In this document: one piece after another, positions 19,994 through 59,085 of the stretch
Layout: the number at the start of each line of letters is the position of its first letter
How positions within the stretch are numbered: the stretch's first letter is position 1
Origin: a virus
IMG/VR virus record: IMGVR_UViG_3300032020_000002
Direction: 5' to 3' (one strand)
Length of the DNA stretch: 64,000 nt
Translations under genes and position numbers: made by a program
Notes under the pieces: generated by a model
The model's input: only the letters and a program-made list of their open reading frames with translations
Databases searched by the model: none
What the model was told of the DNA's origin: nothing

Positions 19994-20060
19994 ACCCACG
20001 ACCTTTCGCTTTCCTGAATAATATACAGGGCGATTGCTCTTTCCGTTGAGCTACGGTGGC
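19975..20060 (-). tRNA. tRNA with ~13-nt intron-like insertion in anticodon arm; isotype unresolved
   Basis: Reverse complement reads GCCACCG-TA-GCTCAACGGAAAGAGC-...-GTGGGTTCAAATCCCAT-CGGTGGC-T: perfect acceptor, D and T arms. Confidence 0.65.
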
Positions 20061-37299: not shown

Positions 37300-37313
37300 A
37301 TCACCATCAAAAA

Positions 37314-42154: not shown

Positions 42155-42163
42155 TTATAATTG

Positions 42164-45403: not shown

Positions 45404-45453
45404 ATGATTGATAAATGGGGCAAGGATTTAAAAGTGTAATGCATATTTCAATT

Positions 45454-45641
45454 AGCGGGGTATTCTCAACGGCAGAGGGTCGGTCTCATAGCCAAGCGGG
45501 TTTGGAAAGGGGAAAACATTGAAGGTAAAACTTCACGGTGGGAGACCCAGAACCCTTCCAGTAAAAGGTGTGTGAGAACCAAAGCACGATAACCTGTGGT
45601 GTGAAAACCGAAGGCTGGAAGTTCAACTCTTCCCCCCGCTA
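45454..45641 (+). tRNA. tRNA(CAU) (Met or Ile2) with 115-nt intron at canonical 37/38 position (intron 45491-45605)
   Basis: acceptor AGCGGGG/CCCCGCT, anticodon stem TCGGT/ACCGA, loop CUCAUA|intron|A, T-arm GGAAG-TTCAACT-CTTCC; CCA not encoded. Confidence 0.6.
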
Positions 45642-45689
45642 TGCCAAAACGCATTACAATTGAATAAATATCACCGATACATATTTCTT

Positions 45690-46110
45690 ATTAGGTGATT
45701 TAAAATGGCAGGAATTAGACTTCAGGAAGCAGGTAAGGCAATAGTGTATCAGTCAGTTCCTTGGTCAAAGCATCTCACCAGCTTGAAGACAGAGAGCTTC
45801 CCCAAGGGGGCAGTTCCTCCGCACCTTGTGAAGTATCTTTTCAAGGCAGGCGGTCTTCCAGCCGAGTGTGCGAAAAAGACTGAGGGTCTGAAAGGTTCTA
45901 CGAGGGTAACAGCCATGAATGCCTGCGTTTCCGCAAGGAAAAAGCTCGGCAAGGTCATGTAATTACAAGCAAGAACCTAAAGTTGACGGGACTGAACAGA
46001 GGTTGGTAGAGATACCCTGTGTATCGCCCAAATAGCCTAAAGGCGAAAGGGCGTTGCGGGGCTTTGGAGCAATGGCTCGGTCTCTTCCTGTCTGTAATGA
46101 AACCCACTCA
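45690..46110 (+). ncRNA. GC-rich island; candidate structured RNA (SRP-RNA-like CAGGAAGCAGGUAAGGCA motif), strand uncertain
   Basis: ~52% GC over 45750-45960; motif resembles conserved SRP domain IV GGAAGCAGCCAAGGCAG; overlaps track ORF 45705..45962. Confidence 0.3.
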
Positions 46111-46148
46111 ACTAAACCTTTTTAAGTTAGACTTTGTTATATTTTTTT

Positions 46149-46344: not shown

Positions 46345-46575
46345 TTACAGCGTCTTTTCGCTTAACATCTTTTTAGCCCGTTCCTCTACCCTTAAATTGT
46401 CTATCTCCTTTCTTATATCCCTTTGCTTGTCCAATAATTCTTGGGCAGTTTCACGCAGTTCTGGGTCATCTTTACTGGCTGAAACGAGGTCTTCCCCATG
46501 ATGCTCCATTCTCTGTGCGTGTTTGCTCATACATTCGAGGCAGTAAGGCTTATTCATGTAATCTTTTTCAGGCAT
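46345..46575 (-). CDS. small zinc-finger/coiled-coil protein
   Basis: internal ATG of track ORF 46345..46800; CLECMSKH. Confidence 0.45.
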   Translation of the reverse strand: MPEKDYMNKPYCLECMSKHAQRMEHHGEDLVSASKDDPELRETAQELLDKQRDIRKEIDNLRVEERAKKMLSEKTL

Positions 46576-46633: not shown

Positions 46634-46795
46634 ATGACTTTCGACTTTCCAATAAAGAAGAAATTCAAGCTCACTATGGGAGGGTTGCCTATAGCTACTT
46701 TTGAAAGTAGGGACACGGCAGAACTTGGCAAACTGATATGGGGAGCTTCTAATAGGGAAATGGCAGAGCTTAAAATCAACGAAGTTGTGGGTTGA
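46634..46795 (+). CDS. array gene; ends KINEVVG
   Basis: hand-translated 53 aa; TGATG junction. Confidence 0.45.
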   Translation: MTFDFPIKKKFKLTMGGLPIATFESRDTAELGKLIWGASNREMAELKINEVVG

Positions 46796-47016
46796 TGCAA
46801 CAGACAGAATTAGCCACAGTTACAGAGTTAGGCGAGATTGGTAAAGCTGAAGCGTTCTCCGAAGAGGAACTCAAGAAAATCAAGGAAATGTTTGACCTTT
46901 TTACTTCCGCTTATGCAAAGGTGGCAGTCCCGTTTCTCGTATTCGACAGAAAAGAAGTGAAACAGAAGTTTTTAAAGTCAAAAAAACTGCTCGAAGAGGT
47001 GGTTTCCAGTGGTTAA
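46795..47016 (+). CDS. array gene; ends LLEEVVSSG
   Basis: ORF track. Confidence 0.5.
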   Translation: MQQTELATVTELGEIGKAEAFSEEELKKIKEMFDLFTSAYAKVAVPFLVFDRKEVKQKFLKSKKLLEEVVSSG

Positions 47017-47245
47017 AATCGAAGCACATTCCCTATTCGGAAAAAAGCCACTCATTCAGGAGCAGGAAGAGCTTTATTTCACATTTGGGAACTTGAGCAA
47101 AGGGATTTTATGGGCAGACCCCAGAATAGCTGAAACATACTACGCCGAAAGCCTTTTAAGGGCATTTTCGCCAAAATCAAGGAGAAAAAATGCAATTAGG
47201 CAGTTCAACAAAGCACTTTTCCTGTTCAACAGTATAGTCGGCTAA
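47009..47245 (+). CDS. array gene; ends NSIVG
   Basis: ORF track. Confidence 0.5.
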   Translation: MVKIEAHSLFGKKPLIQEQEELYFTFGNLSKGILWADPRIAETYYAESLLRAFSPKSRRKNAIRQFNKALFLFNSIVG

Positions 47246-47247
47246 AA

Positions 47248-47275
47248 CGCATTACCAACAAATATTAACTTAAAT
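47248..47275 (+). promoter_or_regulatory. promoter class 2 (AAACGCATTACCAAC...TTAAATATTAATAAA)
   Basis: upstream of ATG 47291. Confidence 0.4.
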
Positions 47276-47290
47276 ATTAATAAACTTTTC

Positions 47291-47671
47291 ATGGCGGGAT
47301 TTAAGCTACATTTTCGTGACGGCAAACTCGTAGTCCATGAGGCAAAAGTCATTGAAGAGAAGCTCGAAGGGATGTTCAAGCACATAGCCAAAATTCGCAA
47401 GGAAAACGCAGAAAAAATCAAAGAAAGGTATTACAAATATGTTCCCAAGTGGGTAAGGGACAAGATTGAGGAAGAAGCACCTTATGTTGAAGCACCAGCG
47501 CTTGCAATGCTTATGGCTTTGAATGCGCCGATGGGTGTATTCACCTGTTTTGTCCTTGGCAGTGAGATACCAGCATTCGCTTCGCATTGCGAAATAGTCG
47601 CAAAGCATAAAAAAGAGGCAGAACAGGCAAAAGCGAGAGCCGAAAGACAGTTAAAGCAGGCATTCGGCTAA
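47291..47671 (+). CDS. array gene; ends LKQAFG
   Basis: ORF track. Confidence 0.5.
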   Translation: MAGFKLHFRDGKLVVHEAKVIEEKLEGMFKHIAKIRKENAEKIKERYYKYVPKWVRDKIEEEAPYVEAPALAMLMALNAPMGVFTCFVLGSEIPAFASHCEIVAKHKKEAEQAKARAERQLKQAFG

Positions 47672-47684
47672 ATCTTCAACGAAA

Positions 47685-47712
47685 CGCATTACCTTCTTTT
47701 TTAAGGCAATTT
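47685..47712 (+). promoter_or_regulatory. promoter class 2 (AAACGCATTACCTTC-TTTTTTAAGG)
   Basis: upstream of ATG 47727. Confidence 0.4.
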
Positions 47713-47726
47713 GACCAATTCTATTC

Positions 47727-47921
47727 ATGGCAGAGGAAGTTCTATCATATCAGGCGTTGAACGATGTCGGCGACACGGAAGGGGGGCATATAATAGTGAG
47801 GACTACTGGTCTTGACGAGATTGGCGTGTTAAGCAGTGCAAAAAAGGTGGGCGTTTACTGGGGCATGGAAGATACCGACAAGGTAATCAACGCCTTAAAA
47901 AAATTAAGCAGGGTGGTGTAA
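47727..47921 (+). CDS. array gene; ends KKLSRVV
   Basis: ORF track. Confidence 0.5.
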   Translation: MAEEVLSYQALNDVGDTEGGHIIVRTTGLDEIGVLSSAKKVGVYWGMEDTDKVINALKKLSRVV

Positions 47922-47922
47922 A

Positions 47923-48066
47923 ATGGGTTTTGAATTTGGTGATATAGGTGACATAATAGAAGATGCTTCTAAAAAGTCAGGAACATTTGCACAAGGAGAC
48001 GCTTTAACAGCTATTGCGATGATGATGTTCAATTTAAATGAAAAGAAGCTCAAGGAGGTGGTGTAA
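47923..48066 (+). CDS. array gene (47 aa); ends KKLKEVV
   Basis: hand-translated; TAATGG junction. Confidence 0.45.
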   Translation: MGFEFGDIGDIIEDASKKSGTFAQGDALTAIAMMMFNLNEKKLKEVV

Positions 48067-48308
48067 TGGCAGAAAAAACGAAATTCGGCATACTGAAGCC
48101 TACTGGCGAAGAAGTAAAAACGCATGGGATTGACCTGTCAAAAATAAAGTCCCCAGACCCGATTGCTTATGCTTACGGTCTTGTTCATGGAGAGGGGGGA
48201 GAACCACTCGGCAAACCAGAAAAAGGAGAAAAGTTCGCACCCGAATTCATAAGGGGCTGGAAAGAAGGTCATAAAAAATACACTGAAAACCTCAAGGATG
48301 TGATGTAG
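48066..48308 (+). CDS. array gene; ends NLKDVM
   Basis: ORF track. Confidence 0.55.
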   Translation: MAEKTKFGILKPTGEEVKTHGIDLSKIKSPDPIAYAYGLVHGEGGEPLGKPEKGEKFAPEFIRGWKEGHKKYTENLKDVM

Positions 48309-48509
48309 ATGGCAACGAAATGGGAAGTTAAAGGATTCGTAGCTACTGGCGATTCATTGACAGCAGGAAATTTGATAATCGAATTAGGAGACAAAGCCGA
48401 TAAAAATGATGTTCTTGAAGAATTGAACAGGAGATATGGCTTCAGAAGATACGATAAAAGACCTGTTTTTGAAGCGACTTCAATAAAAAAACTCAAGGAA
48501 GTGGTTTAA
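48309..48509 (+). CDS. array gene; ends KKLKEVV
   Basis: ORF track. Confidence 0.55.
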   Translation: MATKWEVKGFVATGDSLTAGNLIIELGDKADKNDVLEELNRRYGFRRYDKRPVFEATSIKKLKEVV

Positions 48510-48694
48510 TGGCAATAAAAGAAAGAGTAGATTTGAAAAAAGGATTGTTCGTTGAAGTCAAGGAAAGCGCAGAAGAACCGCCAATGGGCTTCATAATAGA
48601 TGTCTTTCATGGTGATGAACTGGTAAATACATATCCGTATTGGTATGATGACTTTGAGGAAATTAAAAAGAAAAAATTAAAGAAGGTGGTGTAA
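48509..48694 (+). CDS. array gene; ends KKLKKVV
   Basis: ORF track. Confidence 0.55.
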   Translation: MAIKERVDLKKGLFVEVKESAEEPPMGFIIDVFHGDELVNTYPYWYDDFEEIKKKKLKKVV

Positions 48695-48835
48695 ATGGAT
48701 AAAAAAATAGCAAGCGGTAAGGAATTTTTGGTATCAGGTGACGGTTTCTATCCAATGAAAGCATCGAACATAAAGGAACTTCTGAAAGAGAAAGTGTCCG
48801 AAACGAGTGACATTAAATTGAAAAAGGTGGTATAA
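48695..48835 (+). CDS. array gene (46 aa); ends IKLKKVV
   Basis: hand-translated. Confidence 0.45.
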   Translation: MDKKIASGKEFLVSGDGFYPMKASNIKELLKEKVSETSDIKLKKVV

Positions 48836-49344
48836 TGCCTGACGGAATTGTTCGTGGATTTAGGAAAATAGGCGAATGGGAAGTGAAAGAAGCCAAAAAG
48901 GTTGGCGGGTTCATCAAAAAGGAAGCACCAAAAGTAAAGGCTTTCATAGAAAAAGAAGCACCCAAAGTGAAGGAATTCATAAAAAGGGAAGCACCCGTAG
49001 TGCAGAGGGCAATAAGGAAAGGCATACTGACTTCTGGGGAGCTTACGACACAAGGAATAGTTTATATTGAAAAAGACAAGCTGAAAAAACTTGAGGCTAT
49101 TCAGGCGAAAAGACCGCTAACAACATCGGAGACAAGGGAAGTGGAAATCACAAAAGGACGCATAGTAAAACTCGAAAAGGTCGTTTCAAAGGCGAAGGAA
49201 AAGCTGGAAAAATTCAAGGCAGAAGAAGGCGAAACGGAGGTAGAAACATATACAGAGCAACCGCCCACGATGATTCAGGAAGTCATTGTGAATTATCCTG
49301 AAATCGAGGCAAGAAGCGAAAAAAGGCTTGAGGAAGTGGTTTAA
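48835..49344 (+). CDS. array gene (K/E-rich repeats); ends RLEEVV
   Basis: ORF track. Confidence 0.55.
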   Translation: MPDGIVRGFRKIGEWEVKEAKKVGGFIKKEAPKVKAFIEKEAPKVKEFIKREAPVVQRAIRKGILTSGELTTQGIVYIEKDKLKKLEAIQAKRPLTTSETREVEITKGRIVKLEKVVSKAKEKLEKFKAEEGETEVETYTEQPPTMIQEVIVNYPEIEARSEKRLEEVV

Positions 49345-49345
49345 T

Positions 49346-49600
49346 ATGGCACACTTTTATGGAACTCTTCAGGGAGGCGGGAAACAATTAACCCAAACAG
49401 GAACGAAGAATTCAGGGATGTTGGCGACAGTAGCAAGTTGGGAGGGGGCAGTAAGATGCTTCGCATATCACGATGAAAAAACAGGAAAAGACATGGTTGA
49501 GTGCGAAAAGATAAAATGGGAAGGCGCAGGGGAAAACAAGCTCCTTCACAAAGGGTTAATCGGAAAATCAGAAGAGAAATTAAAGGAATCGGTGGGTTAA
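49346..49600 (+). CDS. array gene; ends KLKESVG
   Basis: ATG within track ORF 49328. Confidence 0.5.
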   Translation: MAHFYGTLQGGGKQLTQTGTKNSGMLATVASWEGAVRCFAYHDEKTGKDMVECEKIKWEGAGENKLLHKGLIGKSEEKLKESVG

Positions 49601-49810
49601 ATGAGAAAAGCGGGAAAATTTGAGGTCGGAGAAGCAGAAACACCGATAAAATATACGATGATGGAAGATTTGGATACTGGAAAAAATGTAGTCATGTTAA
49701 CTTTTGGTTATCCGCATGAGGAAAGGGCATGGTTTGATAAAGAGAGACTTGATGATTTCATAGACAAGCTAAAGAATGTCAGAGTCAAAATGGAAAGTGT
49801 GGTGGGTTAA
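49601..49810 (+). CDS. array gene; ends KMESVVG
   Basis: ORF track. Confidence 0.55.
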   Translation: MRKAGKFEVGEAETPIKYTMMEDLDTGKNVVMLTFGYPHEERAWFDKERLDDFIDKLKNVRVKMESVVG

Positions 49811-50011
49811 ATGGTCGTATCAAATGAACAGGAACTTCACAAGAAGACACAGGAATTAAGGAGTGCGTTCCATAATCACATGATGGAATTGAAGGAAGCC
49901 ACAAGCGATTTTGCAGAGATGCAGAGAATAGACACACAGATAAACAACAAGCTGGTCGAAGTCCTCATACTCAATGAACTGGCGCATGAAAAGCTCAAGG
50001 AAGTGATATAA
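49811..50011 (+). CDS. array gene; ends KLKEVI
   Basis: ORF track. Confidence 0.55.
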   Translation: MVVSNEQELHKKTQELRSAFHNHMMELKEATSDFAEMQRIDTQINNKLVEVLILNELAHEKLKEVI

Positions 50012-50012
50012 A

Positions 50013-50195
50013 ATGGTAAAAAAAACACCATGCAAATTTGAATTTGAAGTGCAGGGAAAATATGGTCTTGGGTGGGAATGTGTGACAAGTGAGGGAACTA
50101 AAGCTGAAGCATTAAGAAGACTGAAAGAATATAATGAAAACGAACCGATTTATCCGCATAGAGTAGTAAGAAAGACTCTCAAGGAGGTGATGTAA
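50013..50195 (+). CDS. array gene; ends TLKEVM
   Basis: ORF track. Confidence 0.55.
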   Translation: MVKKTPCKFEFEVQGKYGLGWECVTSEGTKAEALRRLKEYNENEPIYPHRVVRKTLKEVM

Positions 50196-50392
50196 TGTTA
50201 CAATGGAAAAAGGATTTGAAAGCCATGTTGGACAACCCAGATTACATAGAGGAAAAAATCGAGGCAATACAGAAAGAATTGACACATGAAAATCCAAACA
50301 CAAATTATCTCCGTGAAAAAGTCGCATCCATAAACAAATGGCTCGGCGAGATTGACTTGGCACGGAAAAGGAAACTCGAAGGGGTAATGTAA
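50195..50392 (+). CDS. array gene; ends KLEGVM
   Basis: ORF track. Confidence 0.55.
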   Translation: MLQWKKDLKAMLDNPDYIEEKIEAIQKELTHENPNTNYLREKVASINKWLGEIDLARKRKLEGVM

Positions 50393-50393
50393 A

Positions 50394-50573
50394 ATGGGAC
50401 TGCTGAAAAAAGCACAGGAAAAGGAACATTTGCAGAAGAAGCTCGATGTGATAAGGGAAATCAGGGACAAGGGCTGGAACATTAATGATTTTCAGGCAGT
50501 ATGGTATGGCATAGGCAGAATTGAAGAGGAGATTGAAAGCATTAAAAAGAAGGTGTTAGGGAAGGCGATTTAA
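50394..50573 (+). CDS. array gene (59 aa); ends KKVLGKAI
   Basis: hand-translated. Confidence 0.45.
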   Translation: MGLLKKAQEKEHLQKKLDVIREIRDKGWNINDFQAVWYGIGRIEEEIESIKKKVLGKAI

Positions 50574-50574
50574 A

Positions 50575-51033
50575 ATGGCAGATTATGAATCAGTTACAAT
50601 TCCGAAGGAAGTGAGGGAGAAGGAGTTTTGCAAAAAGCTCTTCAAGATAGAGCCAATAGTGGACTTGGCACATGATGTTACAGGATGCGGAAGGTTTGCC
50701 GAGGTCACGGAAACTTCTGATGGTTTTTTTCTTGGACGGGCAAGGAAAGACATAGGATTTAATGAATTTTTGGCGCAACCATCTCCGAGGGCATTGGAAA
50801 ACACAAAAAGGATATTTGACCAGCTTGATAGTGAAGGCAAGATTGAATTCTGCTCAAGAGTGATAGTCCAGAGGATAACACCAGAGGACATAAACATAAA
50901 CTGCGAAAGGCTCAAATCGCTTCAAGCAATAGTGATGGGTGATTCCGAAGCAGACAAAGCAGAGAGGGGAGAAGAAATGAGGCACAGCCGAGCAATGAGA
51001 ATGAATGTCGAGGAAGCAGAGGGTGGATGGTAA
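50575..51033 (+). CDS. array gene (152 aa); ends EAEGGW
   Basis: ORF track. Confidence 0.55.
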   Translation: MADYESVTIPKEVREKEFCKKLFKIEPIVDLAHDVTGCGRFAEVTETSDGFFLGRARKDIGFNEFLAQPSPRALENTKRIFDQLDSEGKIEFCSRVIVQRITPEDININCERLKSLQAIVMGDSEADKAERGEEMRHSRAMRMNVEEAEGGW

Positions 51034-51191
51034 TGTCAAATTTCATAGTCGAATCAATATGTGCAGGAGAAGTAAGTGCCAAAGACGAAGATGAAGCACT
51101 TGAAAAATTTGACAAATGGCTTAATCACAGGGAATTGCATAATATAGAATGTAGCGGTGAGGCAAGAAAGATTAAGGAGGTGTTGGGTTAA
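51033..51191 (+). CDS. array gene (52 aa); ends KIKEVLG
   Basis: hand-translated. Confidence 0.45.
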   Translation: MSNFIVESICAGEVSAKDEDEALEKFDKWLNHRELHNIECSGEARKIKEVLG

Positions 51192-51379
51192 TGGAAAAAA
51201 CAATATTGGGCGAAAGTTTATCTGGGGATAGAATTGTTGAAGTGGAATTTCTTGGTAAACCGCATTTTGTCATAATAAGAGAAAATTTCCCTGAAGAAAA
51301 AATAAAAAACGAAATAAGGCTGGACTTTGATGAAATTGATGAATTATGTAGACTTAAAAAGCTCAAGCAGGTGGTATAG
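51191..51379 (+). CDS. array gene; ends KLKQVV
   Basis: ORF track. Confidence 0.55.
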   Translation: MEKTILGESLSGDRIVEVEFLGKPHFVIIRENFPEEKIKNEIRLDFDEIDELCRLKKLKQVV

Positions 51380-51380
51380 A

Positions 51381-51632
51381 ATGGCAGGATTTGAGCATGA
51401 AAAAATCAGGGGGGCAAAAATATACTTCGGACAGGGAATAACAGAGAAGGAGAAAGAAGAAATCAGGGAATGGTTTAAAAAAGGTCATGCGGGTGCTACT
51501 GATACGCATTTTTGGAAATCAGACAGCAAAATAAGGTTTCAGCAAGTAATTGGTAAAGAATATGTCGGTTATGTGTGTGAAATTGGAAGCACAAAAGACC
51601 TCGCAGAAGGTAAACTGAAAGTGGTGATGTAA
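51381..51632 (+). CDS. array gene; ends KLKVVM
   Basis: ATG within track ORF 51327. Confidence 0.5.
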   Translation: MAGFEHEKIRGAKIYFGQGITEKEKEEIREWFKKGHAGATDTHFWKSDSKIRFQQVIGKEYVGYVCEIGSTKDLAEGKLKVVM

Positions 51633-51818
51633 ATGGCAGAAGATGTTGTTGATGCTGTAATAAATTGGGAAGAAACTGATAGAGCAGGGTATGTCGTAGT
51701 CAATCGTATTGGTTCTACGCTTTATGTCGCAGTAAGAAATTTTGAAAACCCAAAAGGAACATTGACAGCAAAAGAGTTACAAGCAATAGCCAAACTTAAA
51801 CTGGAGGGGGCGATATGA
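51633..51818 (+). CDS. array gene; ends KLKLEGAI
   Basis: ORF track. Confidence 0.55.
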   Translation: MAEDVVDAVINWEETDRAGYVVVNRIGSTLYVAVRNFENPKGTLTAKELQAIAKLKLEGAI

Positions 51819-52066
51819 TGGAAAAATATTTCAGGGTTACACACAGCACAGGTGTTTTTGGTGAAGTTGGTGGCAAACAAATCGGCTCTATACAAAAGGC
51901 AAGAGTTTCTGCTTTTAATATGGAAGAGGCGAAGGAACTGGTCGAAAAACATTTCGGAACAATCGCAATAAACATAGAGGAGATAACAGACCCCAAAGAG
52001 ATAAGGGAATTGGAAATGAAAATCAAGAAAAAGGATTATATACTTAAGAAGGAAGTGATTGGTTAA
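51815..52066 (+). CDS. array gene; ends LKKEVIG
   Basis: ORF track. Confidence 0.55.
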   Translation: MMEKYFRVTHSTGVFGEVGGKQIGSIQKARVSAFNMEEAKELVEKHFGTIAINIEEITDPKEIRELEMKIKKKDYILKKEVIG

Positions 52067-52393
52067 ATGGTCGGCGTAGAAATCTCAATGATGTTTTTTG
52101 CTGAATGGTATAAGAAAGATGTAGCTCCAAAACTCACAAAGGAACAGAAAGAAAAACTGCTGAAAAAGATTTCCGAGCTATCATTGAGAATACCTATTTT
52201 TGAGGCTGGAGTGGAAGTTGACAAAAAAGATTTCCCCGAATTAGCCCCATATGCTCACACCGACAAGATAAGCGGACTTCAGCTTTATGCCGTTATGACC
52301 GAGTTATTTGAGGAAATACATCCAAAAATGATACCGAAGCCATACCCAGAGTTTCCAACGGCAAAGAAGAAGTTAAAGGAAGTGGTGGGTTAA
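52067..52393 (+). CDS. array gene; ends KLKEVVG
   Basis: ORF track. Confidence 0.55.
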   Translation: MVGVEISMMFFAEWYKKDVAPKLTKEQKEKLLKKISELSLRIPIFEAGVEVDKKDFPELAPYAHTDKISGLQLYAVMTELFEEIHPKMIPKPYPEFPTAKKKLKEVVG

Positions 52394-52543
52394 ATGGAAA
52401 AAATAACAGAAATTTTCCCCAAAGGAACTATGATAGATGAGATAATGGATTTCCCGCATGACAATATAAAATGGGATAAATGGGAAGAACATACTGCTGA
52501 AAATGTAAAAATGACTATTGAAAAACTCAAGGAAGTGATGTAA
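52394..52543 (+). CDS. array gene (49 aa); ends KLKEVM
   Basis: hand-translated. Confidence 0.45.
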   Translation: MEKITEIFPKGTMIDEIMDFPHDNIKWDKWEEHTAENVKMTIEKLKEVM

Positions 52544-52711
52544 ATGGCAGATAAATTTAAAGCATTATTGAAGGAAGCGATTTGGCAGTTGAATGGATTC
52601 GTTGAAGAGAAAAAATCAGAGCCAGTCCTTACACCAGAAGGAGAATCCATGCTTGAGAGCGCAGAAAATTTTTTAATTAAAGCAAGAAAATCACTCAAGG
52701 GGGTAATGTAA
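52544..52711 (+). CDS. array gene (55 aa); ends SLKGVM
   Basis: hand-translated. Confidence 0.45.
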   Translation: MADKFKALLKEAIWQLNGFVEEKKSEPVLTPEGESMLESAENFLIKARKSLKGVM

Positions 52712-52939
52712 ATGGTGTTGACAGAAGATGATTTAAGAAGGATAGCATATGAGGCAGGACTGCGTAACAATTCCCTATTTGTAGCCTTTATGAAGGAAAG
52801 ATTTCCGCAAGAAGGAGACAAATATTATGCAAGGGAATGGGCAGACAGGTTCGCAAGCGGAGACCCGACAGGTTACATGGACAATCAGTCGCTTGGGGCA
52901 TACATAAATCAAATCAAAAAGTTGAGAAAGGTGATGTAA
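52712..52939 (+). CDS. array gene; ends KLRKVM
   Basis: ORF track. Confidence 0.55.
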   Translation: MVLTEDDLRRIAYEAGLRNNSLFVAFMKERFPQEGDKYYAREWADRFASGDPTGYMDNQSLGAYINQIKKLRKVM

Positions 52940-53149
52940 ATGATTTTCGACTGGCTTTGGAAAAGAGATAAGGACAAAACACCCAAAAAACTGCCAGTCG
53001 TAGCCATAGAAGGCAAAAAGTATTACCGTGATGACAGGCTTGAGGAATTCAGGGCGGTTGACAACCCGCATGACAGGATACCCTTTTCGGTGTGGGGCTT
53101 CAAGCCAAACATAGTTGAAATGAAAAAGCTCGACAATGTGGTGGGTTAA
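52940..53149 (+). CDS. array gene; ends KLDNVVG
   Basis: ORF track. Confidence 0.55.
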   Translation: MIFDWLWKRDKDKTPKKLPVVAIEGKKYYRDDRLEEFRAVDNPHDRIPFSVWGFKPNIVEMKKLDNVVG

Positions 53150-53329
53150 ATGGTGAAATTAAATATTTCCGAAAGAGAAGTTAATCTTATGTGGGAGGCA
53201 TTGGAGAATCTGAAGAGATTTTGGTCAGAGCAATCTAAAGAATTTCCTACAATGGAAGGCAAAGATATTGCAAAGAAATATGAAAGAGAAGTCGAAAATT
53301 TACTTGAAAAACTCAAGGAAGTGATGTGA
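53150..53329 (+). CDS. array gene (59 aa); ends KLKEVM
   Basis: hand-translated. Confidence 0.45.
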   Translation: MVKLNISEREVNLMWEALENLKRFWSEQSKEFPTMEGKDIAKKYEREVENLLEKLKEVM

Positions 53330-53539
53330 ATGGCAAAAGAAAAAGTCGCAAAAGGTCTTTATGTGGAAGTTGGAGCTTACAAAGGAAAAGAAATAATGGA
53401 TGGATACTACAAAGAAGCAAAACATGAGCCACATCTTTACATAGGAAGTGCTGACAAGCAAGACATGGAAAAAATGTTGAATGCGGTAAAAGAAAAGATA
53501 ACAGAGCTTAAAAAGAAAGGGTTAGACAAGGTGATTTGA
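53330..53539 (+). CDS. array gene; ends GLDKVI
   Basis: ORF track. Confidence 0.55.
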   Translation: MAKEKVAKGLYVEVGAYKGKEIMDGYYKEAKHEPHLYIGSADKQDMEKMLNAVKEKITELKKKGLDKVI

Positions 53540-53805
53540 TGGAAATAGAAAAGGGAGAAATTGCCCCGCAGACAATCAAACAAATTGAAAAATGGCTCGA
53601 TGAAGGAAATGAAATAGCAGTTTATAGGAATGTTGATTTATCAAGCCCCGAAATCGGGAAACTGGTATTTTTAAAAGTGGGCAAAACAGCCACACTCAAA
53701 GTAGCTCCAAAAACATTGCCCGACAATCCAGTAATTCCGATTGCTTGGCGTTACTACCTTCAAAGCGTGATTAAAAGCAAGGAGAAACTCAAGGAAGTGG
53801 TTTAA
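53539..53805 (+). CDS. array gene; ends KLKEVV
   Basis: ATG within track ORF 53536. Confidence 0.55.
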   Translation: MEIEKGEIAPQTIKQIEKWLDEGNEIAVYRNVDLSSPEIGKLVFLKVGKTATLKVAPKTLPDNPVIPIAWRYYLQSVIKSKEKLKEVV

Positions 53806-54026
53806 TGGCAGAAGAAAAATATTCAACTTGGAAAGAATGGGAGGAGGACAGAGACACAGTAGAAGGCATACTCGATAAAAGGGACATGAAGGGAATGATT
53901 GAGATGCTTGCCGATATATCATATTTAAAGGCTGAACATTTAAGGTCAGATTGGCAGGATGAAGTGTCGGCTAAAACATGGGAAAAGATAGCAAGCAGGC
54001 TTGAAAAGCTCAAGGAAGTGGTTTAA
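53805..54026 (+). CDS. array gene; ends KLKEVV
   Basis: ORF track. Confidence 0.55.
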   Translation: MAEEKYSTWKEWEEDRDTVEGILDKRDMKGMIEMLADISYLKAEHLRSDWQDEVSAKTWEKIASRLEKLKEVV

Positions 54027-54029
54027 ATT

Positions 54030-54206
54030 ATGAAATTGGCAATACTTACAGATGATGTCCCATTAGGTTATCATGGGCAAGTAATGAGAATACCGAAGGG
54101 AATGGAAGTAAAAATAATCAGGGAAAGACCAGAAGGTATTGATGTTGAATTAGCGGAGAAAATAATATTCACTGTCCAGAAAGACAGGCTAAAGGAAGTG
54201 GTGTAA
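54030..54206 (+). CDS. array gene (58 aa); ends RLKEVV
   Basis: hand-translated. Confidence 0.45.
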   Translation: MKLAILTDDVPLGYHGQVMRIPKGMEVKIIRERPEGIDVELAEKIIFTVQKDRLKEVV

Positions 54207-54422
54207 ATGGCGACATATTGCGAATATCTCTTCATGGGGAATCCGATTGAAATGGAAATGTCCGCAAAAGACGCAATGAAGCGTTTCAAGTCGAAAATGG
54301 AAGCCCTCGAAAAATACAAAGGAACGATTGTATATGATGGTAGTTTCGTTGGTGTGAAGGATGAAAAAGGAAAATGGCTTATCACAAATAGGGGAGAAGA
54401 AAAATTGAAGGAAGTGATATAG
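54207..54422 (+). CDS. array gene; ends KLKEVI
   Basis: ORF track. Confidence 0.55.
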   Translation: MATYCEYLFMGNPIEMEMSAKDAMKRFKSKMEALEKYKGTIVYDGSFVGVKDEKGKWLITNRGEEKLKEVI

Positions 54423-54423
54423 A

Positions 54424-54606
54424 ATGGCAAATGAAGAGGAAAAATATGCAGAAGAGTTGAGGGCAAGGGGCGTTTTTATCCAGCCCGAACAGGCAAGAGA
54501 ATTCGTTGAAAGGGGCATAATCCCCGAACACGCAATCTGCATAATGAGGGAAAGGGAAGCAGAAGAAGAAAGGTCAAGAGAAAGATTGAGAAAGAAGGTG
54601 ATGTAA
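54424..54606 (+). CDS. array gene; ends LRKKVM
   Basis: ORF track. Confidence 0.55.
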   Translation: MANEEEKYAEELRARGVFIQPEQAREFVERGIIPEHAICIMREREAEEERSRERLRKKVM

Positions 54607-54612
54607 GTGAAA

Positions 54613-54777
54613 ATGCATAGTCTCGATTGCTTTTGCGGAGAAGTAGAAACAGCGAAGGAATCGGCTTACGGAACGAAATGCAAATGCTTCGGGATAGATG
54701 ATAAAGCCAACTCGGTCATTTGTGACATCGCCATGATAGATATAGCAAAAAAAGAAAAGCTCAAGGGAGTGGTCTGA
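54613..54777 (+). CDS. array gene (54 aa, Cys-containing); ends KLKGVV
   Basis: hand-translated; possible GTG start at 54607. Confidence 0.4.
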   Translation: MHSLDCFCGEVETAKESAYGTKCKCFGIDDKANSVICDIAMIDIAKKEKLKGVV

Positions 54778-55013
54778 TGACATATTACAGAGACGGAAAA
54801 ACAGTCATTGATGCTTTGACAGAAACTCAAATAGGCGTTTTCCCGACAATAGAACAAGCAGAATTATTCATAAGAAGCGTGGTTGGATGCGAAGAATCGG
54901 CAGGGGTGTTATTTAGTAAATGTGGAAAAATCGCAAATAAAATCGCATTACTTCCAGAAACACATAAAATGTTGCCCGATGGTTCATGGATGAAGCTCAA
55001 GGAAGTGGTTTGA
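54777..55013 (+). CDS. array gene; ends KLKEVV
   Basis: ORF track. Confidence 0.55.
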   Translation: MTYYRDGKTVIDALTETQIGVFPTIEQAELFIRSVVGCEESAGVLFSKCGKIANKIALLPETHKMLPDGSWMKLKEVV

Positions 55014-55175
55014 ATGGTCTTGACGGAAAAAGAAGTAAAAGAAATAAACACGGAAGCAGAAAATAGGATAGGCGCATTAATGTATCTTGCCACATATGAG
55101 GAGAAGACAGCGTGGACTGACGGTTTCATCAGTGGATACGCCTATGCGAAAGAAAAGTTCAAAAAGGTGGTTTGA
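55014..55175 (+). CDS. array gene (53 aa); ends KFKKVV
   Basis: hand-translated. Confidence 0.45.
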   Translation: MVLTEKEVKEINTEAENRIGALMYLATYEEKTAWTDGFISGYAYAKEKFKKVV

Positions 55176-55245
55176 TGCTTTTCGAGGATGATGACGAAGA
55201 GGATTACGGAGAAATTTGGACAGAATAGCAATAATGGTGATTTAA

Positions 55246-55527
55246 ATGATGTCGGCAATACCGTTTGAAATATCAAAGGAAAATCAGGAGAAGCAGATAT
55301 TAAGGACAGGCGCAATAGCGGAGCTTGACGCAATCAGCCTTTACGAGCAGATGGCTGACAGGTCAAAAAACCCAGATGTCCAGAAGATACTGCTTGACAT
55401 AGCGAAAGAGGAGAAAACGCACATGGGAGAATTCCTCACACTCCTGTCCAATAAGGACACCGAACAAAGGAACGAGATTGAGAAAGGAAGGGCAGAAGTA
55501 ATGGAGAAACTGGGAAAGGTGATGTAA
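55246..55527 (+). CDS. array gene; possible ferritin-like/four-helix diiron motif (ExxH); ends KLGKVM
   Basis: AELDAISLYEQMAD...EEKTHMGEF. Confidence 0.5.
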   Translation: MMSAIPFEISKENQEKQILRTGAIAELDAISLYEQMADRSKNPDVQKILLDIAKEEKTHMGEFLTLLSNKDTEQRNEIEKGRAEVMEKLGKVM

Positions 55528-55797
55528 ATGGAATTTCCTCCAATGTCATTTATAAAAGAATTTAATGTGGCGATAGAAAAGACTATGAATAAAACAAGAA
55601 AACAAATAACCAATATCCGCTATGGCAAATTGGGAGAGATAAAATTCGATTTCAGGGGAAATACATATTCACTTGAAGAACCAGAAGATGTCATACTTGT
55701 CGGTTCTCCGAATATACTTGCTCAGAATTACATCGCAAGGAAGATAATCAGTGGAAAAACATCAGTTGATGTGAAAAAGCTAAAGGAGGTAGTGTAA
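55528..55797 (+). CDS. array gene; ends KLKEVV
   Basis: ORF track. Confidence 0.55.
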   Translation: MEFPPMSFIKEFNVAIEKTMNKTRKQITNIRYGKLGEIKFDFRGNTYSLEEPEDVILVGSPNILAQNYIARKIISGKTSVDVKKLKEVV

Positions 55798-55798
55798 A

Positions 55799-55981
55799 AT
55801 GGAAACACTGAAAGACATAGATGTAAGAACTGACAAAGTATGGATTCCACAAACGAAGGAAGGGAATTTAGAAATATTTTCTGATGAAAGCGGAACGGTT
55901 GTTGAATTGAAAACTCAAAATTTAGAATTGTCATTATTTTTCAATCCCAAACAAAGGAAAAAGCTCAAAGAGGTATTATAA
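55799..55981 (+). CDS. array gene; ends KLKEVL
   Basis: ORF track. Confidence 0.55.
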   Translation: METLKDIDVRTDKVWIPQTKEGNLEIFSDESGTVVELKTQNLELSLFFNPKQRKKLKEVL

Positions 55982-56172
55982 TGGCAACACAAACATGGGA
56001 CAGGGATACATTGGAATCACTCAAAAAGTTAGGAGATGACATAGAATTCATTATGACCAATTACTATGAGTATTATAGCAAAGAGCTTGACGAGAAACTT
56101 GGGGATGTAAGATATGCCCTTGAAGACGAAATAGACAGAATAAACAAGCAAAAGCTGAAGAAGGTGATGTAA
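55981..56172 (+). CDS. array gene; ends KLKKVM
   Basis: ORF track. Confidence 0.55.
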   Translation: MATQTWDRDTLESLKKLGDDIEFIMTNYYEYYSKELDEKLGDVRYALEDEIDRINKQKLKKVM

Positions 56173-56442
56173 ATGGTATTGGAGAGATATGGTGTAGTGC
56201 CAAGAAAGACTGAAGAAGAGTTCAAGGAAAAGATGAAAACAATTGACATTGAACCAAAATGGGTCAATCTTGCGCCATATTTAATCAGGCTCATAAGGGA
56301 AGGATGCCCCGAAAACAGAAAATATGCTGAAGAAGAAATAATGAACATGGCAAGGGTCATGGACTGGGTGAGGCAAGCCCAGAAAAGAGGAGTCCAAATG
56401 CTCCGAGTCCCTTCCGAAAAGAAGCTAAAAGAGGTGGTGTAA
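56173..56442 (+). CDS. array gene; ends KLKEVV
   Basis: ORF track. Confidence 0.55.
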   Translation: MVLERYGVVPRKTEEEFKEKMKTIDIEPKWVNLAPYLIRLIREGCPENRKYAEEEIMNMARVMDWVRQAQKRGVQMLRVPSEKKLKEVV

Positions 56443-56669
56443 TGACAACTGCAATAGTGCTTGGAAGCGAAACGCTAAAAGAGACAGGATTCGATGCCTA
56501 TGCCATTGAGAGAAATGCAAGAAGAATACAAATGCTGTTAGAAAAAAAAGTAATTGACGAAAATGTTGCCAATAAAATAGATAGCAATATAGCTGGAATA
56601 AAATATCACATTAACAGGCTGGCAGATTGGTCGGAGCATTGGAATAAAAGGATGAAGGAAGTGATGTAA
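56442..56669 (+). CDS. array gene; ends RMKEVM
   Basis: ORF track. Confidence 0.55.
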   Translation: MTTAIVLGSETLKETGFDAYAIERNARRIQMLLEKKVIDENVANKIDSNIAGIKYHINRLADWSEHWNKRMKEVM

Positions 56670-57080
56670 GTGGCAAAGAAAAAACCTTATTTCATTCCAG
56701 AGCCTTTTGGTTTGCCGTTTGAACTTACGCAGGCTGGAGAATTCAGAAAACTCAATATTAAAGAATGGCAGGACATAAAAGACCTTGATGCTCAAATAAG
56801 AACTATCATACCACCAAAAAAGAAAGGTGAACAATGGGAAGTCAAGATAGGACTTCAAGAAAGTTTGGGCGAACAAGGTGGCGACACATTAACTCAATTC
56901 TATGATGAAAAACCAACACTCGCCGAAATAAGAAAAGACATTATTGATAGTTACAAAGAGAAGAAAAAGGAAATAAATGAACCAATGGCTATGGGAGTCA
57001 TAGCAAAATCAGGCAGAGATGAGATGATAGAGAAAGCAATTGACATAGTATTAAAGAAAAAGCTCAAGGAAGTGGTGTAA
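56670..57080 (+). CDS. array gene (GTG start); ends KLKEVV
   Basis: ORF track. Confidence 0.5.
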   Translation: MAKKKPYFIPEPFGLPFELTQAGEFRKLNIKEWQDIKDLDAQIRTIIPPKKKGEQWEVKIGLQESLGEQGGDTLTQFYDEKPTLAEIRKDIIDSYKEKKKEINEPMAMGVIAKSGRDEMIEKAIDIVLKKKLKEVV

Positions 57081-57271
57081 TGCCAACATTCAAAGTGTTC
57101 CTGAAAAAAGTCAATGTGATAGAACCAGTAGAAATAGGCGAATTTGAAGCCAAAAACGAAGAAAAAGCAATAGAAGGGGCATCATTTGAATTAGGTCTTC
57201 ACGAACAAAGGTATTTCAATATAGAAAATCTTATGCCCGAACTTGAAGCGAAGCTGAAGAAGGTGGTCTGA
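57080..57271 (+). CDS. array gene; ends KLKKVV
   Basis: ORF track. Confidence 0.55.
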   Translation: MPTFKVFLKKVNVIEPVEIGEFEAKNEEKAIEGASFELGLHEQRYFNIENLMPELEAKLKKVV

Positions 57272-57522
57272 TGGGACATTATACAATTACAACTTTAAAG
57301 ACAAAGGCAGAATGGGTTAAGCAGGCAAAGAAAGCCATCGGAGTCATGCTGTCTAAAGGTTACAAGAACATAAATGAATTCGCCGACAAAGACAAAGAAA
57401 ACTGCCAAAAGCTCGTTCAGGCTTGGGATGCCCTCGGAATGCCTGTAGAAAAGCAACTCATCAAAAGATGTGGAATCAGAAGGCATCTTGATGAAGAGAA
57501 ATTTGAGGAAGTGACGGGATGA
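57271..57522 (+). CDS. array gene; ends KFEEVTG
   Basis: ORF track. Confidence 0.55.
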   Translation: MGHYTITTLKTKAEWVKQAKKAIGVMLSKGYKNINEFADKDKENCQKLVQAWDALGMPVEKQLIKRCGIRRHLDEEKFEEVTG

Positions 57523-57743
57523 AATGCCAAAAATGCGAAATAAAATTCAATTGTCCATTCTGGTGCAATGAATTGGCAGAGGGAAGATTATCACTCAAAA
57601 TTCATAAAGGGAAACCGACAAAGGAAGATTATCTGGAAATACAGAAAATGATTAATGAAGGTTATCATACTGGAATAGACAGCCCTCATGGAATAAATTG
57701 GGAATTGAAGAGAGTGGAGAAGCTCAAGGAAGTGACGGCATGA
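57519..57743 (+). CDS. array gene (Cys-containing); ends KLKEVTA
   Basis: ORF track. Confidence 0.55.
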   Translation: MKCQKCEIKFNCPFWCNELAEGRLSLKIHKGKPTKEDYLEIQKMINEGYHTGIDSPHGINWELKRVEKLKEVTA

Positions 57744-57976
57744 AAGGATTATCAGCGATGATTGGCGAAGTCCCGCATGACATCAGGGAATTCGTCAGCA
57801 AGGAAGCGGATGAAACAAGGGCAGTCGCCAAAGTAGAGTGTGCGGACAAATCAGGATTATCATATGATTTATGCGAGGCAAAGCTGTTCATTGAATTGAA
57901 CCCAGAAATACTCGAAGCCATTCTCATCGGGAACTGGGCAGGGGTGCTTGAAAAATTCAAAAGGGTGACTGGTTAA
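57740..57976 (+). CDS. array gene; ends KFKRVTG
   Basis: ATG within track ORF 57698. Confidence 0.5.
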   Translation: MKGLSAMIGEVPHDIREFVSKEADETRAVAKVECADKSGLSYDLCEAKLFIELNPEILEAILIGNWAGVLEKFKRVTG

Positions 57977-58869
57977 TGGAAGAAAAAAACTGGATAATAC
58001 ACAACAGAACCTTCATTTTTGGTGGCGGGGAAGTTTGGCAACCAGACTGCAATAAAACAAGGACTGAAATACTTTCAGATTTTACTACCAAACCAGATGA
58101 ATTTTTGCCTAATGGTAAGTGTTTCGGAAGGTTAGTGGGGAAAGTTATGGGCGATGTATGCACACCATTGCTACAAGAAGGAGTGGCATTCGTTGAAAGC
58201 ATACCAGAAAACATGAAAATAGGTTTGGGTCATGGTGGAATGCTTGGCGGTTTAGACAAAGAAATGACTTGGATACCCGTTGATGAGCAAAAATGCAAGG
58301 AAGCACAAAAATTGGATGAAAAAAGAAAGGAATTGGAGTCGTGGGAGTTGTCAAAGAAGATACCCGATGTCTATTTTGCGCCAAGCACTTTACAGGAAGC
58401 AGAAGAATGTAAAAAATACAAGGAAAACATTGAAAAGATTGACAAGCCCATTCTGGATGCCATAAGGAAATGCTTTCTTTTGGAAGATGGCAAATTTATC
58501 AATAAATCACCATCCGCAATTTCAGCAAAAATAACAACTGAATGCGACCTTGCGCCATTCCGAATTTCGGACAATATAACGGAACTTGTGGAAAGGGGAA
58601 TAACCAATCCAGAAACAGTAAAAAGCGAGCTTAAAAACTGGGGTAAAACCATGAGGGACATCAAAAAGGTTTACCACAATACTGAAACGCCATTTATCAT
58701 TGAAACGAAAGACGGGCAAAGATTTCTTGTTGCTCCCCGTGTCGGTCAAAAATCCGATGATTGTTATAGCGTGGAAAGCCACATAAAATATGAATTGAGA
58801 AAAAAAGCAGAAGCCATAAACAACCAGATTGAAGAGTTGGCGAGCAAAAGGCTTGAAAAGGTTTATTAA
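57976..58869 (+). CDS. last array gene (297 aa); ends RLEKVY
   Basis: ORF track. Confidence 0.55.
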   Translation: MEEKNWIIHNRTFIFGGGEVWQPDCNKTRTEILSDFTTKPDEFLPNGKCFGRLVGKVMGDVCTPLLQEGVAFVESIPENMKIGLGHGGMLGGLDKEMTWIPVDEQKCKEAQKLDEKRKELESWELSKKIPDVYFAPSTLQEAEECKKYKENIEKIDKPILDAIRKCFLLEDGKFINKSPSAISAKITTECDLAPFRISDNITELVERGITNPETVKSELKNWGKTMRDIKKVYHNTETPFIIETKDGQRFLVAPRVGQKSDDCYSVESHIKYELRKKAEAINNQIEELASKRLEKVY

Positions 58870-58890
58870 TCATATGATTATAGTGATAGT

Positions 58891-59085
58891 ATGACAGGTG
58901 AACTCGGTGTATGGGGAGGACTTCTTGGCACGGTATTAGGGGCAGGATTAGTCCTTATAGCTATGGATGTCCTTTTCAACAAAACGACTGGCAAATACTA
59001 CCAGAAGTCAACTGGCAAGGAAATCAGCAAGGAAGAAGCTGAACAGAAGATGAAAAGTCAAGAGAAACTCACGCACATATTTTGA
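58891..59085 (+). CDS. small membrane protein
   Basis: N-terminal TM. Confidence 0.45.
   Translation: MTGELGVWGGLLGTVLGAGLVLIAMDVLFNKTTGKYYQKSTGKEISKEEAEQKMKSQEKLTHIF

Follow-up and report, generated by a model that had tools for sequence, protein, structure and literature searches.

The virus record IMGVR_UViG_3300032020_000002 of IMG/VR carries, on the + strand of the 64,000-nucleotide (nt) stretch analysed here (the window), an array of 50 small genes, g01 to g50, between positions 46634 and 58869. All 50 are co-directional and encode proteins of 46-297 amino acids (aa), with a median of 69, which agrees with the roughly 50 co-directional genes of 45-300 aa counted in the original prediction, made from the DNA letters alone. 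The mutual dissimilarity of the protein bodies was upheld as well: with the last 8 residues trimmed, blastp and phmmer returned a single marginal pair, g19/g46 (E=3e-4), and the idea of paralogy among array genes was dropped because these searches show the bodies to be unrelated. Only g39 (rubrerythrin/EncFtn-like) has a convincing Pfam match; the remaining Pfam matches are weak (E of at least 4e-4), and PHROG families, every one of unknown function, are matched by at most 8 of the 50 proteins. The open reading frames (ORFs) of the array are real genes under purifying selection, because the pooled ratio of non-synonymous to synonymous substitution rates (dN/dS), taken over 15 orthologue pairs between the window and the related array L141 (see below), is 0.20. 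Their coding status, claimed at the outset, is confirmed by this value.

Among the 49 gaps between successive genes, 46 measure -8 to +3 nt, namely -8 (1), -4 (4), -1 (14), 0 (18), +1 (8) and +3 (1), and the classes -1, 0 and +1 account for 40 of them. Stop and start codons of neighbours overlap or abut, as in a coupled operon. The earlier statement that each stop does so is correct for these 46 gaps and fails for three genuine intergenic gaps of 45, 55 and 70 nt. Tight coupling is confined to g05-g50 (47727-58869), hereafter the core array, which is probably one polycistronic unit; g01-g03 and g04 are separate short units, in which the junction motif is weak or absent. The features of the locus are listed below.

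46634-47245, + strand: g01-g03, a short coupled upstream unit with weak tails (INEVVG, LEEVVSSG, NSIVG)
47245-47255, + strand: promoter-like motif AAACGCATTAC, 46 nt 5' of the g04 ATG
47291-47671, + strand: g04, 126 aa, standing alone behind a promoter-like motif of its own and lacking both a Shine-Dalgarno sequence (SD) and the tail motif; it ends in KQAFG
47682-47692, + strand: promoter-like motif AAACGCATTAC followed by a T/A-rich box, 45 nt 5' of the SD-less g05 ATG
47727-58869, + strand: core array of 46 coupled small genes, g05-g50, defined by the gene list, the gaps and the motif matches
55175-55228, + strand: micro-ORF of 17 codons (MLFEDDDEEDYGEIWTE), overlapping the g38 stop (TGATG)
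55236-55241, + strand: free-standing SD GGTGAT, 4 nt 5' of the g39 ATG, that is, the core of the ribosome-binding site (RBS) in a non-coding context
55246-55527, + strand: g39, rubrerythrin/EncFtn-like by Pfam, tail EKLGKVM
55528-55797, + strand: g40, an array copy extended by ...VDVKKLKEVV
57060-57085, + strand: canonical g45/g46 junction, AAG CTC AAG GAA GTG GTG TAA overlapping ATG, which reads K-L-K-E-V-V, stop, next start
57976-58869, + strand: g50, the terminal 297-aa gene, ending in KRLEKVY (AAG GTT TAT)
58868-58879, no strand: palindrome AATCATATGATT of 12 nt, which overlaps the stop codon that ends the array

L141 is without g02-g03. The micro-ORF sits in the sole long gap within the core array, and its start region (the TGATG overlap and the first codons) is kept in L141.

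A common sequence joins the genes of the core array. The degenerate junction AARCTSAARGARGTGRTNTRR, with at most 2 mismatches, has 24 matches in the window vs 0.06 expected, all of them on the + strand between 48.0 and 57.3 kb. Conservation spans about 20 nt, from codon -7/-6 to the stop codon (-1 being the last codon), so that the near-invariant 25-nt junction first described has to give way to a shorter, constrained motif. At the protein level, 35 of the 50 tails fit the loose pattern [KR]-[LFIM]-x-x-V-[VMILT], which comes close to the 40 or so tailed proteins announced; by the pattern of the original prediction itself, K[LF]K[EK]V[VMI]G?, the number falls to 18, and exact KLKEVV ends are found in 8. 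Proteins starting with MA- (16 of 50) are a plurality and not the majority that had been claimed.

This uniform junction is a property of the array and is not genome-wide. Some 70 other co-directional, mostly close or overlapping genes, from the window and from the flanks of its relatives, have varied tails (KKEEKV, SEVKV, TEVVT, KVIYT, GVDE, EEKI), and in the coupled genes outside the arrays purine-rich runs are found at differing distances from the stop codon. A common junction is therefore more than an RBS requirement alone would impose.

The promoter-like sites reported near 47250 and 47690 are genuine repeats of AAACGCATTAC. On the + strand, the motif is exact at 27560, 45647, 47245 and 47682 and has one mismatch at 26652; all five copies are followed by a T/A-rich box and lie 45-58 nt upstream of an ATG, mostly without SD; allowing at most 1 mismatch, the window has 8 matches vs 1.08 expected. 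AAACGCATTAC is probably the element's own promoter/operator motif for leaderless transcripts, and the copy at 47682 is likely to be the promoter of a leaderless array transcript. In the core array itself, neither promoter-like (sigma-70) nor terminator-like sites are enriched (36 vs 29.4±5.3, and 11 vs 10.4±3.3, respectively). As for the terminal palindrome noted at 58865, AATCATATGATT does exist at 58868-58879, but its 10-nt core ATCATATGAT recurs five more times (59235, 682, 18279, 42952 and 57859). It may be a protein-binding site, and it is no G+C-rich terminator hairpin.

Cassette exchange among related arrays

A metagenome scan with one junction variant gave 13 loci, six of them carrying arrays, to which L141, L139 and L144 were added by look-ups through g39 and through the 704-aa protein encoded downstream of the array. 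The array has the same position in L141, L139 and L144, between the same conserved flanking genes. Compared to the window, gene content and order are as follows.

L126: 99.6% identity to the window; a pair of genes is inserted at each of two gene junctions
L134: g16 and g17 are separated by an additional gene
L136: in place of g37, a 106-aa gene unrelated to it, likewise ending in KLKEVV
L141 (about 90% identity): order 1,4,5,10,11,12,14,15,17,18,24,37,27,28,new,new,35,36,38,39,new,42,46,44,45,47,new,49
L139: 7 of 47 genes in common with the window, in the order 27,16,7,40,34,39,47
L127: a g15 homologue directly adjoins a g40 homologue

Inserted, deleted or replaced genes thus set the relatives (L126, L134, L136, L141, L139) apart from the window, and the breakpoints lie at the motif, as in the phage regions of PeSL type to which we return below. 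This mosaicism makes cassette shuffling the best supported of the roles that had been proposed for the junction.

Over the array interval, the collinear blocks shared by the window and L141 have their ends in gene junctions, often with an overlap of 10-40 nt, and adjacent cassettes range from 73 to 96% in nucleotide identity and from 0.10 to 0.50 in the proportion of synonymous differences (pS). The crossover does not always fall at the same place: GAAGTGACGGCATGAAAGG accompanies g49 whichever of three different genes precedes it, GTGGTCTGATGACATAT travels with g37, and in the g42>g46 and g45>g47 joins the crossover is at the stop/ATG. As far as can be read from these alignments, the pattern fits short-homology recombination rather than a site-specific recombinase.

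A site-specific system moving the cassettes, whether an integron-like attC/integrase pair, a homing endonuclease or TnpB-guided cleavage, would take the junction as its target. Integrons have attC sites, imperfect inverted repeats of about 60-140 nt, between their cassettes, and the IntI tyrosine recombinase is encoded next to them. The resemblance lies in a long co-directional array of mostly promoterless, unrelated single-gene cassettes behind an upstream promoter, and the element also has TnpB, several HNH/NUMOD3 endonucleases and inteins. However, the junction is a coding sequence of about 20 nt without inverted repeat or structure, no attC site is present, and no IntI is encoded nearby (Pfam and PHROGs scans). 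More generally, neither an integrase nor any other tyrosine or serine recombinase was found, either when the window ORFs were scanned with Pfam and PHROGs or in the precomputed lists of Pfam matches that cover the relatives' 20-kb flanks. Since, in addition, crossover points differ within the junction, a site-specific recombinase fits poorly. The array is not an integron, and we consider any site-specific mover of this kind very improbable.

Junctions also vary from one array to another. At residue -1 the window has V/M, L139 has I and L127 has M (chi-square p=5e-9), and at residue -3 the window has E against K for L139 (p=9e-4). Such array-specific dialects suggest that junctions are homogenised within a genome, as judged from the tails compared.

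Two genes of the array have relatives elsewhere. For g39, 1,702 homologues of about 89-94 aa were found; the 21 non-array homologues whose sequences were examined end in ...EEVQEITG, ...EVEELIGK or similar, and only the four array copies (P0001-P0004) end in ...EVMEKLGKV[MVI]. The g40 family is widespread, with a length of about 78 aa, a core NIRYGxLGEIxFDFRG and varied C-termini, and the extension ...VD[VI][KR]KLK[ES]V[VM] occurs in its array copies only. Judged by these comparisons, a gene placed between two junctions acquires the tail. The g40 domain is also present as 7-9 repeats in giant proteins of 2,879-4,426 aa. A homologue search with g46 gave three close relatives only.

A 51%-identical homologue of the 704-aa protein is encoded on L145 (ENA ERZ27248285 k141_139962), which has no tail-motif array and whose small genes show ordinary ATGA overlaps and varied tails; the array is thus limited to a single sub-lineage. 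IMG/VR, GTDB genomes and INPHARED yielded no relatives. In IMG/VR, the exact 18-mer gave one single-copy match, a degenerate 17-mer gave single-copy chance matches only, and back-translated peptides of the 704-aa protein had no match. The junction pattern had two single chance matches in GTDB genomes (a Methanobacteriota metagenome-assembled genome and Clostridium acetireducens), neither with an array. INPHARED contains no DNA match to 51000-58900 and none for the 893-aa protein of the upstream flank.

Selection on the protein ends

The last four codons of the array genes, AAG GAR/AAG GTG RTN, constitute an in-frame SD of AAGGAGGTGAT type for the next gene, its core G-GTG-RT being placed 4-6 nt before the next ATG. 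An SD-like sequence at the 3' end of the upstream gene, at functional distance, is thus present, as in coupled operons. Codons were counted over 91 non-redundant internal tails from the window and the related arrays. GTG encodes Val -2 in 82 of the 91 tails (background 19%), and AAG encodes Lys -4 in 48 of 64 cases and Lys -3 in 38 of 40 (background 36% for both). Codon -2 carries 1.4-2.3 bits of information at each of its three positions, with 1.4-1.7 bits at the third. This preference is lost from genes with no downstream cistron, where GTG is found at -2 in 0 of 4. The last codons are AAG GTT TAT in g50, which keeps a motif-like peptide and has lost the SD nucleotides, AAA GTT GCG in the last gene (47) of L139, and AAG GTC ATG in the isolated gene 45705-45962; the g49 orthologue of L141, where g50 is missing, reads AGA ACG GTT vs AGG GTG ACT in the window. 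Codon bias at -4 to -2 that disappears along with the downstream gene points to SD selection at the nucleotide level. These data support the view that the protein ends are dictated by the RBS of the next gene, and bear out the role first assigned to the purine core, that of an SD for the downstream cistron.

The same RBS is found free-standing in the window, as GGTGAT before g39 and as AAGGAGGTGA before the minus-strand gene 46345-46575; variants before other window genes are GGAGGTGA or GGGGTGAT. We take all four to be complementary to the canonical 16S 3' end.

A conserved sequence regularly repeated at each gene boundary could also be an RNA-processing site that yields monocistronic mRNAs, a role raised in the original prediction, and this regularity is the sole point in its favour. 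Junction windows are no more structured than gene bodies, with a mean 60-nt minimum free energy of -5.8 vs -7.0 kcal/mol and an unpaired probability of 0.48 vs 0.45, and have no Rfam match, so nothing in their folding suggests a processing site. Moreover, a cut would part the SD from the start codon or destroy the stop-start overlap. We therefore give processing almost no credence.

A second layer of conservation lies upstream of the SD, as had been proposed. Leu is found at -5 in 82 of 91 tails (90%) and Lys/Arg at -6 in 76 of 91 (84%). At codon -5, information is high at positions 1 and 2 (1.1-2.1 bits) and low at position 3 (0.4-0.6). All six Leu codons are used (CTC 38, TTG 13, CTA 11, TTA 10, CTG 9, CTT 1), and Pro, His and Gln codons, one second-position change away from CTN Leu, are never found there. 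CTT almost never follows AAG at this place because the genome avoids AAGCTT, which has 0 occurrences in the whole window vs 29.8 expected. All 12 diverged orthologue pairs kept a hydrophobic residue at -5, 8 of them with a changed codon; over 46 comparisons between orthologues, 37% synonymous and 22% non-synonymous differences were counted at codon -5, as against 21% and 31% in gene bodies. Information that is high at the first two codon positions and low at the third reveals amino-acid-level selection, and it is this selection that holds Leu -5 and Lys/Arg -6. Residues -4 to -1 are confounded by the RBS, and -3 is variable (E, K, G, Q, S, D, R, including charge reversal).

The hydrophobic residues -5, -2 and -1 match the i, i+3, i+4 spacing of an amphipathic helix, and our guess, from modelling, is that Leu and Lys might let the hydrophobic V-V end imposed by the RBS sit on a short amphipathic C-terminal helix. 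In the g39 model (mean predicted local distance difference test score, pLDDT, 90.6), a C-terminal helix runs through the tail, the extreme end being of low confidence; the AlphaFold model of g45, built without alignment, is unusable (mean pLDDT 58). No amphipathic periodicity was found in the tails upstream of -8.

Such conservation could also mean that the hexapeptide [KR]-L-[KR]-[KE]-V-[VIM]-COOH is primarily a protein tag, for packaging, sorting or turnover by a common partner, and overlaps the RBS only secondarily. The amino-acid-level constraint on Leu -5 and Lys/Arg -6, with its 12 conserved orthologue pairs, speaks for a tag, as does the gain of the whole tail, K-L included, by imported genes; in addition, 3 of the 4 terminal genes retain [KR]-L-x-K-V with non-SD codons. 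The rest of the tail does not behave as a ligand: -3 is freely variable, -1 depends on the array, and additional G, VTG, VTA or VVSSG ends are tolerated, which a free-C-terminus ligand would not permit. The g49 orthologue that became terminal lost Val -2, and the codon bias at -4 to -2 acts on nucleotides and is gone without a downstream gene. Pfam and PHROGs searches revealed no PDZ domain, tail-specific protease or obvious reader in the window, but most of its proteins are unannotated, so that this negative counts for little. The PDZ-ligand, degron and packaging roles suggested earlier found no positive evidence, given the variable -3, the dialects of the arrays and the missing reader, and a tail that is a tag first seems to us unlikely.

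At the opposite extreme, the tail could be a pure RBS by-product of a packed operon, the junction having no part in recombination and the differences between arrays arising by illegitimate recombination followed by selection. The strong nucleotide-level SD bias accords with this, coupling of overlapping genes through intragenic SDs is widespread among prokaryotes (PMC6728339), and selection alone would leave breakpoints between genes. Yet other coupled genes of the same genomes have SD-like runs that vary in position and no common tail. The 10-40 nt overlaps between window and L141 blocks at junctions, whose halves co-segregate with either neighbour, and the dialects that point to within-genome homogenisation are likewise unfavourable, and the Leu and Lys upstream of the SD would be left unexplained. 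We judge a mere by-product to be improbable.

Genomic setting

The window comes from a metagenomic contig of 73 kb (ENA ERZ27247703), of which a near-identical piece exists in JGI 3300035660. Three genes of the array flanks are relevant here.

42161-44842, + strand: 893-aa protein of the upstream flank, which L141 and L139 likewise have ahead of their arrays
58891-59085, + strand: 64-aa membrane-like gene directly 3' of the array, conserved in L126 and L141; its orthologue ends the L144 array
59322-61436, - strand: 704-aa replication-type protein of the downstream flank, convergent with the array

Also encoded are an RNA ligase, TnpB, NUMOD3 homing endonucleases, a ParB-like protein, a glutaredoxin and an SPFH protein, and no capsid or terminase gene was recognised in the window. 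From its gene content, the element is probably an uncultivated archaeal virus, plasmid or other mobile element. Both the affiliation of its replication gene and its gene features are archaeal. Named homologues of the 704-aa protein all belong to archaea (Bathyarchaeota/Bathyarchaeia, Methanomethylicaceae, Norongarragalinales), some being fused to PrimPol or DnaG-type primase domains, and its best isolate match in INPHARED, a weak one, is Methanobacterium virus PhiF3. The tRNA-His(GTG) at 19975-20060 (-) has an 11-nt anticodon-loop intron of archaeal type, which default ARAGORN missed and which was found by Rfam and by intron-allowing ARAGORN. Genes that follow an intergenic region with AAACGCATTAC lack an SD, and internal genes carry one. 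These leaderless-like first genes, the tRNA intron and the 704-aa homologues argue for an archaeal host. The RNA ligase matches many bacterial phages and is uninformative in this respect.

Several other observations were made along the window and its relatives. The ...NVLKKV end of the 704-aa protein was dropped as a tail motif, being the conserved end of its homologues' own C-terminal domain; in L141 (12742-16248) this protein carries a LAGLIDADG intein that the window copy is without. An intein bearing HNH and NUMOD3 domains lies within the helicase at 35443-37458 (-). Adjacent genes 15451-16032 and 16029-17117 (+), the second a NUMOD3 homing endonuclease, share their last nine residues, FASFLGAKP, followed by an ATGA overlap, which looks like a gene-end duplication by insertion of the homing-endonuclease gene.

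Upstream of the array, the isolated gene 45705-45962 ends in KKLGKVM and is flanked by G+C-rich non-coding stretches, 45440-45660 and 45963-46120. Neither stretch has an Rfam match, and 45440-45660, the only one folded, gave a non-significant z = -0.8. A 76-aa gene with a CxxC motif, 46345-46575 (-), faces the array start, is kept in L141 and has its full free-standing SD, AAGGAGGTGA, 5 nt before the ATG.

Besides AAGCTT, other 6-bp palindromes occur 0 times in the 64 kb: TCATGA (25.4 expected), TTCGAA (16.6), CCATGG (15.8), GATATC (13.7), as well as ACATGT, CTCGAG, CTGCAG, GAGCTC and ATCGAT. This looks like strong restriction-site avoidance.

Interpretation and relation to known systems

We think it likely that the array is a translationally coupled hyperplastic region of accessory genes, whose junction doubles as a short-homology recombination site. 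This reading builds on the anatomy, the codon statistics, the cassette mosaicism, the tail gain of imported genes and purifying selection. One promoter would produce a leaderless polycistronic mRNA of about 46 small genes, starting some 45 nt downstream of AAACGCATTAC at 47682. Cistrons after the first would be translated by serial termination-reinitiation at each stop that overlaps or abuts the next ATG, the ribosome being held or recruited by the AAGGAGGTGAT-type SD in the last four codons of the upstream gene, which the reading frame would convert into the residues K-(E/K)-V-(V/M/I). Between related genomes, single genes have been inserted, deleted, replaced or reordered, with a crossover point that varies within the junction, and the shared junctions of about 20 nt would serve as the short-homology sites for this recombination. 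Any gene landing between two junctions would receive an in-frame stop, be coupled to its upstream neighbour and supply the RBS of the downstream one, so that the junction would act as a plug-and-play expression adaptor.

Several points weigh against this reading. Leu -5 and Lys/Arg -6 are explained neither by the RBS nor by maintenance of homology, and the helix-capping idea draws on one confident model, with a low-confidence end, and one unreliable model. The commonest junction of the window, GAA GTG GTG, is a weaker anti-SD match than GAG GTG ATN, and Glu -3 shows no preference for GAG (17 GAA vs 7 GAG, equal to background). For the translationally coupled mega-operon of the original prediction, the anatomy of a coupled operon is there (46 of 49 gaps, in-frame SD), but the single transcript and the coupling are inferred from that anatomy, and so, in their turn, are the recombination mechanism and the role of Leu and Lys. 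Breakpoints at gene boundaries are also expected under random illegitimate recombination with selection, so their location is no proof of a role for the junction; no recombinase was identified in Pfam and PHROGs scans of the window. Finally, the 16S 3' end of the host is assumed to be the canonical one.

The closest functional analogue is the PeSL of T4-type phages, a repeat made of promoter and terminator that borders ORFans in hyperplastic regions and through which modules are shuffled (Arbiol et al. 2010, PMC2839356; Comeau et al. 2014, PMC4122927). There, a sigma-70 promoter and a stem-loop terminator lie in an intergenic sequence of about 100 bp, each cassette is its own transcription unit, and the repeat was proposed to be a short-homology recombination site that also ensures expression of the inserts (PMC2839356, PMC4122927). 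The array shares with these regions a repeated expression signal flanking clustered small ORFans in a hyperplastic region, and close relatives that gain, lose or swap single genes beside the repeats. Its repeat, however, is about 20 nt long, lies inside coding sequence, is translational and has no promoter or hairpin, so that the sigma-70 promoter and stem-loop terminator of a 100-bp intergenic region are missing. In addition, it gives the proteins a common C-terminal peptide, and the host is probably archaeal; excised cassette mini-circles are a trait of the PeSL regions. The array is not a member of the PeSL family.

Termination-reinitiation coupling with intragenic SD motifs has been established experimentally in archaea and bacteria (Huber et al. 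2019, PMC6728339), and archaea have leaderless first genes and SD-dependent internal genes (PMC6728339). Both the overlaps or abutments (ATGA, TRATG, TAAATG), with the SD in the 3' end of the upstream gene, and this leaderless-first, SD-internal pattern are found in the array. Known cases, however, concern gene pairs or short operons whose members are functionally related and whose junctions differ in sequence from case to case, whereas the array has about 45 consecutive junctions with one sequence and one frame, between unrelated genes exchanged between genomes. It is a coupling anatomy at unusual scale and uniformity, in which the genes are mobile and unrelated.

In lambdoid phages, earlier "linker sequence" proposals invoked conserved sequences at gene boundaries, and Martinsohn and colleagues reportedly described in 2008 a contribution of short-homology recombination to mosaicism. 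Modules are similarly exchanged there at short conserved gene-boundary sequences, but these are sporadic, with no uniform repeat, shared tail or obligatory coupling.

KLKEVV occurs in no paper of a full-text literature search, and nothing comparable is mentioned in a paper about viruses of Bathyarchaeia. The earlier claim that no such system has been described must be tempered, as PeSL shuffling (PMC2839356) is a clear functional analogue; a coding, translational repeat of this kind does appear to be undescribed.

It is doubtful, though conceivable, that the junction additionally fuses a functional tag, [KR]-L-[KR]-x-V-Φ-COOH, that would address accessory proteins to one partner. If true, the virus would encode an express-and-tag cassette system, for particle loading, chaperone hand-over or timed half-life, with no described counterpart.

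The junction provides a sequence tag for finding hyperplastic regions in metagenomes, and a ready template for building synthetic polycistronic constructs. Its more than 90 independent tails also form an unusually clean natural dataset on how a coding-embedded RBS shapes protein ends and how proteins cope with a C-terminus forced on them, the conserved Leu and Lys being a specific, testable anomaly. The idea of regulatory repeats as shuffling sites would be extended from transcription signals to a translational coding signal, and from bacterial to probably archaeal viruses. For such viruses, a single junction of about 20 nt serving as stop, RBS, coupling device and recombination handle would be a compact way to keep a large, fast-turning pool of accessory genes expressed.

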